Of a DNA stretch of 32,000 nt, positions 23,902 to 26,650 are shown piece after piece. The translations under genes and the position numbers were made by a program. The notes under the pieces were generated by a model that worked only from the letters and a program-made list of their open reading frames with translations, was not told the DNA's origin and did not search any database. Positions within the stretch are counted from its first letter, which is position 1; each line of letters opens with the position of its first letter. Where the stretch lies: the NCBI RefSeq assembly GCF_000007185.1, contig NC_003551.1:60001-92000 (forward strand), written 5' to 3'. The DNA comes from Methanopyrus kandleri AV19 (GTDB lineage Archaea; JAADCQ01; Methanopyri; Methanopyrales; Methanopyraceae).

Positions 23902-25701
23902 GTGGTATCGATCGGCAGGAGGGTAGCAGTCGTGGACAGGGAGCGGTGCAAAGGAGGATCCAAATGCGACTACGTCTGCCAACGTTTCTGCCCTGGGGTC
24001 AGGACAGGGCGTGAGACCATCACGATCGACGAGGACACCAACAAGCCCGTGATCTCCGAGGAACTGTGCTCCGGCTGCGGTATCTGCGCCCAGAAGTGTC
24101 CCTTCGATGCGATCAAAGTTGTACGCCTCCCCGAGGAGCTAGAGGAAGAATGCGTACACAAGTACGAGGAGGGAGGGTTCCGACTCTACAGGCTCCCCGT
24201 TCCCAAACCCGGGAAGGTCACCGGCGTGATCGGACGCAACGCGATCGGTAAGACCACCGCCGCTAAGATACTCACAGGAGAGCTCAAACCCAACCTAGGG
24301 GATCCTGAAGCGGACCCCGACTGGGACGAGGTGATCCGAGCATTTTCGGGCACGGAGCTCCAGGAACACTTCCGACGTATCGCGGACGGTGATCTCCGAC
24401 CCGTCATGAAGCCGCAGTACGTCGAGGCCCTGCCCAAGGTCGTTAAGGGCCGGGTGAAGGACGTCCTCGAGGACGTAGACGAGCTCGGGGTTGTCGACGA
24501 GCTCATCGAGCGCCTCGGACTGACCGAGGTGACCGACCGACGGATCTCCGACCTCAGCGGTGGAGAGCTGCAGCGTGTCGCTATCGCCGCGGCACTCTCT
24601 CGAGACGCGGACTTCCTGGTTTTCGACGAACCGTGTAGCTACCTCGACGTCGAACAACGACTCTCGCTGGCCCGGTCACTCCGTGAGATCGTCGAGGATC
24701 GAGGTATTCCGATGCTCGTCATCGAGCACGACTTAGCCACACTGGACTACGTCGCCGACGTGGTGCACGTCCTCTATGGAAAGCGTGGTGCGTACGGTGT
24801 GGTGTCCAAGCCGATGGGTGTAGGCAAGGGGATCAACGCGTACCTGAAGGGTTACTTGGAGGCCGAGAACGTCCGCTTCCGGGACGAGGAAGTGGTGCTC
24901 CCGGAGAAACCGGCGGAGGCCGAGGCGGGTGAGCGAGACACCCTCGTGGAGTACGGCGAGCTCGTCAAGGAATACGACGGCGACTTCAGGCTCGAAGTGG
25001 AGCCGGGCGAAATTCGTGTCGGGGAGATCATCGGAGCCCTCGGGCCTAACGCCATCGGTAAGACGACCTTCGTTAAGCTCCTGGCCGGAGTACTCGAGCC
25101 TACCGGAGGAGGAGTCGATGTCGACGTTAAGGTCTCGTACAAGCCGCAGTACCTGGAGGTGGATTCGGATGAACCCGTCGAGCAAGTGCTACGAAGGACC
25201 GCCGGTTCGGAGTGGGGATCGAGCTGGTACCGGAGCAACATCGTGGAGCCACTGGACTTAGAGTACCTGTTCGATAGACCCTTGTGTGAGCTGAGCGGCG
25301 GTGAGCTGCAGCGCGTAGCCGTGGCGGCCGCCCTATCCCGGGAAGCCGATCTGTACCTTCTAGACGAGCCTAGCGCGTATTTGGACGTTGAAGAGAGGAT
25401 CAACACCGCCCGCGTCATCAGACGGGTGATCGAAGCACGGGATGCTGCCGCCATCGTAGTCGACCACGACTTACTCCTGCTAGACTACATCAGTGACAGG
25501 ATGATGGTGTTCGAAGGCGAGCCAGGAAAGCACGGACGTGCGAATCCGCCGGAGAGTAAACGGGAAGCCATGAACAGGTTTCTGTCGAACTTAGGCGTGA
25601 CGTTCAGGCGGGACCCGGAGACACGGAGGCCGAGAGCCAACAAGCCCGGCAGTCACCGTGACCGTGAACAGAAGCGTCGTGGTGAGTACTTCTACGCGTA
25701 G
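23902..25701 (+). CDS. ABCE1: ABCE1 / RNase L inhibitor homologue (ribosome recycling ATPase)
   Basis: N-terminal diferredoxin domain (CKGGSKCDYVCQRFCP, CSGCGICAQKCP) followed by two ABC cassettes. Cassette motifs are GRNAIGKTT / LSGGELQRV / VFDEP and GPNAIGKTT / LSGGELQRV / LLDEP. 599 aa. Confidence 0.93.
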   Translation: MVSIGRRVAVVDRERCKGGSKCDYVCQRFCPGVRTGRETITIDEDTNKPVISEELCSGCGICAQKCPFDAIKVVRLPEELEEECVHKYEEGGFRLYRLPVPKPGKVTGVIGRNAIGKTTAAKILTGELKPNLGDPEADPDWDEVIRAFSGTELQEHFRRIADGDLRPVMKPQYVEALPKVVKGRVKDVLEDVDELGVVDELIERLGLTEVTDRRISDLSGGELQRVAIAAALSRDADFLVFDEPCSYLDVEQRLSLARSLREIVEDRGIPMLVIEHDLATLDYVADVVHVLYGKRGAYGVVSKPMGVGKGINAYLKGYLEAENVRFRDEEVVLPEKPAEAEAGERDTLVEYGELVKEYDGDFRLEVEPGEIRVGEIIGALGPNAIGKTTFVKLLAGVLEPTGGGVDVDVKVSYKPQYLEVDSDEPVEQVLRRTAGSEWGSSWYRSNIVEPLDLEYLFDRPLCELSGGELQRVAVAAALSREADLYLLDEPSAYLDVEERINTARVIRRVIEARDAAAIVVDHDLLLLDYISDRMMVFEGEPGKHGRANPPESKREAMNRFLSNLGVTFRRDPETRRPRANKPGSHRDREQKRRGEYFYA

Positions 25702-25826
25702 GGGACCTCCCACGGCACTAGCCGACGAAAACGCGTCGGTCTCGAGCTCCACCGATTCTCGGACAGCAACATACCCCGACAACGTCCCGGAGGCCCTTTA
25801 TGTTGAAATATGGAAACATAATTGTA

Positions 25827-25831
25827 TTTTT
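25827..25831 (+). terminator. Oligo-T run (T5), candidate archaeal terminator for ABCE1
   Basis: TATTTTTA about 125 nt downstream of the ABCE1 stop. A second T5 lies at 25987-25991. Confidence 0.3.
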
Positions 25832-25848
25832 AGGTTCATACGGTTTAT

Positions 25849-25862
25849 GCATGATCCGTGCA
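25849..25862. repeat. Direct repeat copy 1: GCATGATCCGTGCA
   Basis: 13 of 14 identical to copy 2, which starts 77 bp downstream. Both copies are preceded by TTAT. Confidence 0.7.
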
Positions 25863-25925
25863 TGGAAGTTGAATGATAGTACGTAAATAGTATGGTACCA
25901 ATGCATAGATTACATGAGCGTTATC

Positions 25926-25939
25926 GCATGGTCCGTGCA
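25926..25939. repeat. Direct repeat copy 2: GCATGGTCCGTGCA
   Basis: See copy 1. Read directly from the sequence. Confidence 0.7.
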
Positions 25940-26022
25940 AGTGTAACGTATTATCGTCGAAGAATCGTAATATTATTTACGTACAATTTTTCGACAATCA
26001 TACACAGACCGTAATATCCAAC

Positions 26023-26059
26023 ATCGAGTTAACGCCCGCGGGAAGTTCAAAAACTCGAT
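26023..26059 (-). terminator. Inverted repeat ATCGAGTT(21 nt)AACTCGAT with a T5 run on the minus strand; candidate terminator of the phosphodiesterase gene
   Basis: 8-bp perfect arms at 26023-26030 and 26052-26059. The loop contains palindrome CCCGCGGG (26035-26042). The minus-strand TTTTT (26049-26053) begins 46 nt after the stop at 26099. Confidence 0.3.
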
Positions 26060-26098
26060 TTATTTGCGGAAAAGACAGTTCGGAGCGTGGGCGGGGAG

Positions 26099-26650
26099 TC
26101 AGAGCTCCGTTTCGAACTCCTCAGTCTCCAACCGATCACCCTTGAGCATGTACAGCTTCATCCACACCTCTTTACCGTCGATGGTGCCGTACATGAACGA
26201 CGGACCCGGGCTAGGACCTCCACCCGACGGTACGCCGGTAAGGCTCCCCGGGTTTACGATCAGCACACCTCGGTGCTCCTTGAACTCCGGCCTGTGGGTG
26301 TGACCCGTGAAGATAACGTCGGCCCCCTCTTCCTCGGCTATCGCCGCGAGCTGGTCCGGGTCGCCCCTCGGATGGACCCCGCTGCCGTGATCTACCGTCA
26401 CCTTGACTTCTCCGATATCTTCGGTCACCCTGGGAGGTAGCGGGAGCCCGAAGTCGCAGTTCCCCACCACCATCAGGGCTTTTTCACCGAGTGACGCTAT
26501 CCACTCTATGGTGTCCTCGGTCGTATAGTCCCCGGGTGAAATCACCACGTCCACGGGAGCGAGCTCCTCGATCTTTCGCTTCAGAGTGTGTGGAACTTCC
26601 TGCGCACGCTCGGGAATGTGAGCGTCCCCGAGCACCAGTACCGTGATCAT
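26099..26650 (-). CDS. YfcE/MJ0936-family metallophosphoesterase (phosphodiesterase)
   Basis: 183 aa. VLGDAHIP, SPGDY, VGNCD, VDHGSG and FTGHTHRP metallophosphatase motifs in canonical order. Confidence 0.85.
   Translation of the reverse strand: MITVLVLGDAHIPERAQEVPHTLKRKIEELAPVDVVISPGDYTTEDTIEWIASLGEKALMVVGNCDFGLPLPPRVTEDIGEVKVTVDHGSGVHPRGDPDQLAAIAEEEGADVIFTGHTHRPEFKEHRGVLIVNPGSLTGVPSGGGPSPGPSFMYGTIDGKEVWMKLYMLKGDRLETEEFETEL

Follow-up and report, generated by a model that had tools for sequence, protein, structure and literature searches.

An AT-rich spacer between convergent genes of Methanopyrus kandleri is probably a neutrally evolving relic framed by candidate terminators

Two convergent genes of the hyperthermophilic archaeon Methanopyrus kandleri AV19, encoding ABCE1 on the plus strand (domains Fer4_RLI and two ABC_tran; end at 25701) and a YfcE-type phosphodiesterase on the minus strand (domain Metallophos_2/YfcE; end at 26099), are separated by a 397-bp spacer between their stop codons. 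We analyzed this spacer within a 32-kb stretch of the chromosome (32,000 nucleotides; contig NC_003551.1, positions 60,001 to 92,000), hereafter the window, to which coordinates refer unless another locus is named. Between 25801 and 26080, 103 of 280 bases are G or C (0.368), against a mean of 0.599 (sd 0.03, range 0.511 to about 0.68) in the other 280-bp windows of the 32 kb, a compositional anomaly far beyond chance. Because the neighboring spacers are short (mostly 1–56 bp, with a few of 112–213 bp) and GC-rich (G+C 0.61–0.83), this island is exceptional in both length and composition; nearby convergent gene pairs abut or overlap, without any spacer. A preliminary description of this DNA, made from its letters, had pointed out the AT-rich island between convergent 3' ends and a set of repeats within it, and its coordinates, strings and counts for the spacer all proved correct when the sequence was re-read. 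We consider it probable that the spacer consists of two oligo-T terminator zones around an ancient, dispensable, neutrally evolving AT-rich palindromic relic at a rearrangement junction. The spacer and its two main divisions are:

Positions 25702 to 26098, no strand: whole spacer, bounded by the ABCE1 stop codon (25699-25701) and the phosphodiesterase stop codon (26099-26101, minus strand)
Positions 25702 to 25795, plus strand: ABCE1-proximal segment, candidate 3' untranslated region (3' UTR), with normal G+C, fast divergence and several indels
Positions 25796 to 26080, no strand: AT-rich core, G+C 0.365 in AV19, evolving at the rate of 4-fold degenerate sites

Orthologous loci were fetched starting from the phosphodiesterase protein and comprised Methanopyrus sp. 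KOL6 and SNP6 and the metagenome-assembled genomes (MAGs) L022 and L023, which form one group, together with L024 and L029; a further relative, 96% identical, was represented by partial contigs only (L013–L015). In all lineage comparisons "AV19" stands for the lineage of the window, to which contig DUJS01000004.1 of assembly GCA_013329715.1 is 100% identical across the 15.9 kb compared. The flanking genes include those for ABCE1, a CBS-domain protein, NFACT, the phosphodiesterase, Thg1 and Asp dehydrogenase. The convergent pair and the AT-rich core are both found in KOL6, SNP6, L022, L023 and L029, with spacers of 398–404 bp, and the island is thus carried by three other Methanopyrus lineages: the KOL6/SNP6 group, the 96%-identical relative, where it is partly visible, and MAG L029. 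Core G+C is 0.32–0.33 in the KOL6 group, and the minimum over 200 bp falls to 0.28–0.29 there and to about 0.32 in L029. In L024, by contrast, ABCE1 and the phosphodiesterase are both complete and lie 27 bp apart (GTGGCCTCTACGGCGCGTTCGACGGGT), with no target-site duplication or terminal repeat visible at the junction. In window coordinates, the missing DNA is:

Positions 25728 to 26095, no strand: segment absent from L024, about 368 bp, boundaries approximate to a few bases

Since L024 does without it, this segment of about 370 bp appears to be dispensable.

Where the island is present, divergence in its core keeps pace with that of 4-fold degenerate sites in the genes on either side (ABCE1, phosphodiesterase, Thg1 and Asp dehydrogenase, taken from the window, L020, L024 and L029). 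Core and 4-fold-site divergences were 0.218 versus 0.229 between AV19 and KOL6, 0.358 versus 0.357 between AV19 and L029, and 0.35 versus 0.389 between KOL6 and L029. These three lineages agree at half of the core columns, and L029 has indels inside the core. The ABCE1-proximal segment (25702–25795) diverges by 0.20 from KOL6 and by 0.47 from L029, with 15–28 gap columns.

The composition of the island can be accounted for in similar terms. Polarized substitutions within it, counted as weak-to-strong (W>S, from A or T to G or C) against strong-to-weak (S>W), stand at 16:8 in AV19 and 11:8 in KOL6 and imply an equilibrium G+C of 0.38–0.47. At the 4-fold sites of the flanking genes the S>W:W>S counts are 23:4 in AV19, 42:5 in KOL6 and 82:19 in L029, implying an equilibrium of 0.33–0.49 against a present value of about 0.8, and the same bias is seen at all codon positions; judged by these counts, all three lineages are far from compositional equilibrium. 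The island matches the neutral substitution equilibrium in composition, which makes an appeal to selection unnecessary to account for its AT-richness. Its rate of change does not exceed that of 4-fold sites, which are themselves still rich in G+C, and recent decay from GC-normal DNA is therefore excluded: AV19, KOL6 and L029 must have inherited the island from a common ancestor in which it was already AT-rich. Foreign or palindromic DNA of high A+T content would be a fitting source. Some M. kandleri spacers of clustered regularly interspaced short palindromic repeats (CRISPR) have a G+C of 25–45%, indicating that AT-rich invaders exist. The island-free L024 is more GC-rich, at 0.647 over the fetched locus, and appears to shift in the opposite direction.

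One strongly non-random internal structure, absent from the preliminary description, was found in the spacer, an imperfect inverted repeat of 39 nt:

Positions 25855 to 25893, no strand: left arm of the inverted repeat, 29 of 39 positions complementary to 25970-26008
Positions 25970 to 26008, no strand: right arm of the inverted repeat, with 76 nt between the arms

This repeat beats 200 of 200 shuffles in AV19, is weaker in KOL6 (15/200 shuffles; longer branch) and is undetectable in L029. When the arms are taken as 43 pairs (25851–25893 against 25970–26012), 41 are complementary in AV19 or KOL6, and pairs that are broken in one of these lineages stay intact in the other. Across the 43 pairs, no compensatory double change that keeps a pair was found between AV19 and KOL6. 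The independent loss of pairs, together with the lack of two-sided changes, points to a once near-perfect palindrome in decay rather than to a selected structure.

The two edges of the spacer differ from its interior in carrying features whose position is kept. Termination at T-runs is the usual archaeal mode, and candidates of this kind follow both stop codons:

Positions 25827 to 25831, plus strand: T5 run, candidate oligo-T terminator of ABCE1, 126 nt past the ABCE1 stop
Positions 26049 to 26074, minus strand: candidate phosphodiesterase terminator zone, reading CTTTTCCGCAAATAAATCGAGTTTTTG on the minus strand and holding the block 26056-26073

The first plus-strand T-run past the ABCE1 stop is a T5 at +126 in AV19, a T6 at +128 in KOL6 and a T4 at +137 in L029. 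Past the phosphodiesterase stop, T-runs lie at +26 (T4) and +46 (T5) in AV19, at +28 (T6) in KOL6 and at +35 (T5) in L029. The block 26056–26073, invariant at 17 of 18 columns in the three lineages, is the only significantly conserved stretch (permutation p = 0.007); on the minus strand it reads TTTTCCGCAA(A/G)TAAATCG and begins 26 nt past the phosphodiesterase stop. From these features we infer that the spacer edges act as terminators of two convergent transcription units. They resemble archaeal oligo-T terminators in having T4–T6 runs on each sense strand soon after the stop, at positions kept across lineages, and the small-RNA table of M. kandleri has 3' UTR ends at T-runs (PMC3695527 Table S1). 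Unlike a plain pair of terminators, however, the spacer extends far beyond them: they cover only its two edges, termination leaves about 215 bp in between unexplained, and the neighboring convergent pairs of the same genome manage without a spacer. In L029 (4556–4600, minus strand as oriented), a GC-rich hairpin with an 11-bp stem (TCCGGGCGCTT/AAGCGTCCGGA) stands between the phosphodiesterase stop and the T-run, a layout that is missing in AV19 and KOL6.

The preliminary description had coupled a pair of terminators with an unannotated small transcript. The terminators are favored by the positional T-runs and by the conserved block, but the transcript gained no positive support. The features on which such a transcript could be built are two invariant blocks within the core:

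Positions 25879 to 25916, plus strand: invariant blocks GTACGTAAATA (25879-89) and ATTACATG (25909-16), at a fixed 19-nt spacing in three lineages

These blocks could be a TATA box and a start site. On that reading, an unannotated promoter inside the island would drive a short non-coding or antisense transcript or a micro open reading frame (micro-ORF), for example with TAAATA at 25884 as TATA box, initiation near 25912 and termination at the T5 run 25987–25991. Given the fixed spacing, the second block lies about 26 nt downstream of the TATA-like hexamer, a T-run comes about 75 nt later, ORFs of 10, 18 and 10 codons start from an ATG at 25914 in the three lineages, and the fold z-scores of AV19 against shuffles are -2.8 and -2.2. 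However, the longest run of unchanged columns, GTACGTAAATA, falls short of significance (p = 0.06), conservation within the island is lowest in the part that would be transcribed (divergence 0.32–0.40), and L029 has lost the TTTATGTT element at 25797. The fold z-scores drop to -0.5 and -0.8 in KOL6, the covariation terms of RNAalifold are positive, and hence penalizing, on both strands (+2.8 and +0.7 kcal/mol), and an AU-rich fold would not be expected to survive growth near 100 °C. Rfam matches were absent, both from the window at the gathering score and from 25600–26200 at E ≤ 10, and ARAGORN detected no tRNA or tmRNA. A published small-RNA survey of M. kandleri screened every intergenic region for RNAs with more than 500 reads, and its table contains no RNA from the island at that threshold in the one growth condition used (PMC3695527 Table S1). 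Taken together, these results make a transcript of this kind unlikely. A scan for sigma-70 promoters and hairpin terminators was uninformative, as expected for an archaeon. The stem 25956–61/25990–95, which reads GTCGAA/TTCGAC in the window and ATTGAA/TTCAAT in the 96% relative, was considered as a compensatory change and set aside, since it occurs in no conserved alignment fold. The micro-ORF at 25914–25946, which begins at the invariant ATG and would encode MSVIAWSVQV in AV19 and MGIIILPVQI in L029 and spans 18 codons in KOL6, is too short and variable to assess.

A longer reading frame raised the question of a protein. In the KOL6 group a plus-strand frame of about 32% G+C is open for 74 codons and ends at the same stop as in AV19, and such a frame could be what is left of a gene of foreign, AT-rich origin, of the sort that the AT-rich CRISPR spacers suggest. 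In AV19, however, the frame is interrupted by two in-frame stops, and in L029 it is broken by indels; substitutions fall at codon positions 1, 2 and 3 in numbers of 26, 28 and 19, with no third-position excess. No ORF is conserved across the lineages, no Pfam or PHROG match was obtained at E ≤ 10, and no CRISPR spacer matches the island. We reject a protein-coding reading because of the missing codon periodicity, the in-frame stops and the lack of family matches, and regard a pseudogene as very unlikely.

The short repeats and palindromes on which the preliminary description had dwelt were tested against dinucleotide shuffles of the spacer and followed through the other lineages. The two most prominent are:

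Positions 25849 to 25862 and 25926 to 25939, plus strand: direct repeat GCATG(A/G)TCCGTGCA, 14 nt with one mismatch, copy 1 reading GCATGATCCGTGCA
Positions 26023 to 26059, no strand: hairpin with an 8-bp stem ATCGAGTT...AACTCGAT around CCCGCGGG (arms 26023-30 and 26052-59), ordinary by shuffles

A direct repeat as long as 14 nt was reached in 7 of 300 shuffles and the 8-bp inverted repeat was equalled in 64 of 300, and 6-bp palindromes are not enriched in the spacer (104/500 shuffles). Further copies and palindromes include GGAAGTT(G/C)AA at 25864 and 26041, ATGCAT at 25847 and 25901, and CGTAAtattatTTACG (CGTAA-TATTAT-TTACG) at 25966–25981. Both copies of the 14-nt repeat are changed in KOL6, SNP6 and L029, the CGTAA...TTACG and TGTTGAAATATGGAAACA palindromes are altered or deleted in KOL6/SNP6 or L029, and the hairpin at 26023–26059 has lost its left arm and loop in L029. 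Every one of the motifs first described, including both copies of each direct repeat, is altered in at least one lineage, and the repeats are specific to the AV19 lineage. The proposal that they form a binding platform for a protein consequently finds no support, as the repeats are not conserved in KOL6, SNP6 or L029. Some assembled contigs break within the island: five Logan contigs (runs ERR9765742-49) that are identical to the window and differ at their other ends all end at 26021, 2 nt beyond the 26023–26059 hairpin, two contigs of the 96% relative end at 25924, and one JGI contig ends at 26016. These repeated breaks could mark where a transcript ends, where coverage falls or where the sequence varies.

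An AT-rich stretch with inverted repeats also calls to mind a chromosomal replication origin or a DNA-unwinding element, as had been suggested from the sequence. The island has the lowest G+C in the 32 kb and would be the easiest DNA there to melt, it contains an inverted repeat, and M. kandleri is a lineage in which canonical Cdc6/Orc1 is reported missing (PMC3914693, PMC2643942) and Ori-Finder results for relatives are inconsistent (PMC5504354); we found no mapped or predicted M. kandleri origin in the literature searched. In composition (0.368 G+C over 280 bp versus 0.60 in the window), the island is as AT-rich as an unwinding element would be. An archaeal oriC is typically built of origin recognition box (ORB) or mini-ORB repeats around an AT-rich unwinding element, beside orc1/cdc6, and the spacer, although intergenic and AT-rich with inverted repeats, differs in lacking ORB-like dyads, conserved repeats and an adjacent initiator gene, in sitting between convergent 3' ends and in being missing from one lineage. 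The ORB-like dyad TTCCANTGGAAAC (TCCA-N-TGGAAA type) has no match in 25702–26098 at up to 3 mismatches, and its 17 matches in the whole window at that threshold compare with 17.6 expected by chance. TGGAAAC, which had been likened to half of a mini-ORB core, occurs once only in the spacer and belongs to no such dyad when up to 3 mismatches are tolerated. Genes for an initiator, MCM or a polymerase are absent from about 25 kb on the left and 10 kb on the right, and the sign of the GC skew flips at every gene-strand switch in the window, not only at the island. Absence from L024, which has the same flanking genes, would not be decisive by itself, because archaeal origins can be dispensable; combined with the lack of any conserved repeat in DNA that changes at the neutral rate, it leaves an origin here highly improbable.

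Two other recognition sequences were considered and rejected. A dif site is an 11-6-11 imperfect inverted repeat with AT-rich flanks that is highly conserved among related species (PMC2958812). The palindrome at 25966–25981 resembles a Xer/dif site in having inverted arms and a 6-bp AT spacer inside AT-rich DNA, but its arms match over 5 bp only, are broken in KOL6 (TTAAG) and are unrecognizable in L029; as there is no conserved 11-6-11 dyad, a dif site is rejected. A link to CRISPR through the likeness of GGAAAC to the repeat 3' tag AATGAAAC was also dismissed, as none of 39 published CRISPR RNAs matches the island beyond 7–15 nt.

Selection might instead act on composition and length while leaving the sequence itself free. 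An element of this type could serve a nucleoid-associated protein as a binding platform, mark an SMC or domain boundary, or act as a buffer that separates convergent RNA polymerases. The persistence of AT-richness and of a 397–404 bp length in three lineages despite 22–36% divergence, the freedom of the core from indels between AV19 and KOL6, and the short, GC-rich spacers elsewhere in the genome speak for this reading, and in Thermococcus AT-rich DNA is described as stalling SMC via a nucleoid protein (PMC11840125). Yet the composition equals the neutral equilibrium, L024 does without the island and the other nearby convergent pairs have no buffer, and we therefore judge such an element to be quite unlikely. 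In a fuller form, the island would be kept for its composition and length as an easily melted or protein-coated landmark in an archaeon without a recognizable Orc1/Cdc6. It could be a zone of initiation or unwinding, or a boundary of a chromosome domain or of SMC, and L024 would have moved or replaced it; to this, too, we give only a small probability. The indel-free core, the shared contig ends and the TATA-to-start-like spacing of the two invariant blocks are what leaves some small weight to a short transcript or to a composition-dependent structural role.

We return to the relic reading and to how such DNA could have arrived. In distant Methanopyrales (78–83% protein identity), a different gene follows the phosphodiesterase and ABCE1 is not nearby: a co-directional gene starts 2–10 bp after it, fibrillarin-like in L008 (6552–7024) and L009 (6552–7012) and without a Pfam match in L010 (6552–7178). 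This places the spacer at a synteny breakpoint of the M. kandleri clade. A scan of genome contigs with the phosphodiesterase added distant Methanopyrales only, again with different synteny. Within the clade, L029 is the most divergent by distance and was considered as the outgroup, but sites polarized with true outgroups favor L024 as basal (32 sites, 8 of them transversions, versus 14 sites, 1 of them a transversion, for L029). With L024 basal, a gain of the segment in the ancestor of the other three lineages and a loss in L024 are equally parsimonious.

Among known elements, miniature inverted-repeat transposable element (MITE)-like or other AT-rich mobile relics come closest. The shared features are a composition unlike that of the host, inverted-repeat arms of about 40 nt around a 76-nt center, presence or absence between lineages, a synteny breakpoint and neutral decay. 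The differences are that no target-site duplication, second copy, transposase or donor was found, and that the island is old, being common to lineages with a 4-fold-site divergence of 0.36. Neither the window nor the fetched loci (about 250 kb) contained a second copy of the island, and BLAST of the spacer against phages and plasmids returned chance matches of 20–47 nt or none. Viral contigs scanned with three exact patterns and JGI metagenomes scanned with one gave only chance matches of 18–31 nt in unrelated DNA, and only a weak resemblance, TATGC/TATCC, was seen by eye next to the arms. The idea of a decayed integration scar, already raised from the sequence, is favored by the 4-fold-site rate and the absence from L024.

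In the reading that we prefer, the edges would be the only working parts of the spacer. The ABCE1 transcript would end at the oligo-T about 126 nt past its stop, and the phosphodiesterase transcript in the conserved TTTTCC...TTTTT zone 26–50 nt past its own. The roughly 215 bp between the two terminators would be what is left of an old insertion or rearrangement scar, AT-rich and palindromic, with arms of 39–43 nt that were formerly near-perfect and have since been decaying separately in each lineage, and with a composition that would sit at the AT-ward substitution equilibrium of these lineages, no selection being needed.

Several observations weigh against this reading. The core is free of indels between AV19 and the KOL6 group at 22% divergence, while the GC-normal ends of the spacer show 5–6 indel events, which hints at a constraint on length, although L029 carries indels in the core. 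For a compact genome in which most spacers measure 1–56 bp, it is mildly surprising that three lineages should have retained about 370 bp without use. The RNAalifold consensus contains 9 pairs changed on both sides, compared with 2.9 in shuffles; we gave this excess no weight because the five sequences counted, from three lineages, are also those on which the structure had been built. The insertion origin is itself inferred, with no second copy, target-site duplication or donor to back it. Finally, the role of the terminators is read from sequence features.

Two observations concern the surroundings of the spacer. The start of ABCE1 is ambiguous: the longest ORF begins at a GTG at 23902 (599 aa) and the recorded call is 596 aa from 23911, where the window has an isoleucine codon; in the relatives ABCE1 is called at 598 aa. 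About 1.2 kb past the right end of the window, a GC-normal 213-bp spacer (L007 19255–19467) appears by eye to hold a minus-strand tRNA-like gene, recognized by the T-arm motif GGTTCAAATCC in the reverse complement, suggesting that other long spacers here hold GC-rich RNA genes.

The significance of this locus is mainly cautionary, in that an origin-like, AT-rich repeat island in a GC-rich hyperthermophile proves to be neutral and dispensable when it is compared with five related genomes. The island may also show, from within these genomes, which base composition is neutral for the lineages that carry it, about 0.35–0.45 G+C, beside 4-fold sites that stand near 0.8 and are losing G+C, and for two genes of M. 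kandleri the conserved T-run zones offer terminator positions that can be tested. Were the island instead kept for its composition, it would provide a rare handle on chromosome organization or replication initiation in this lineage.

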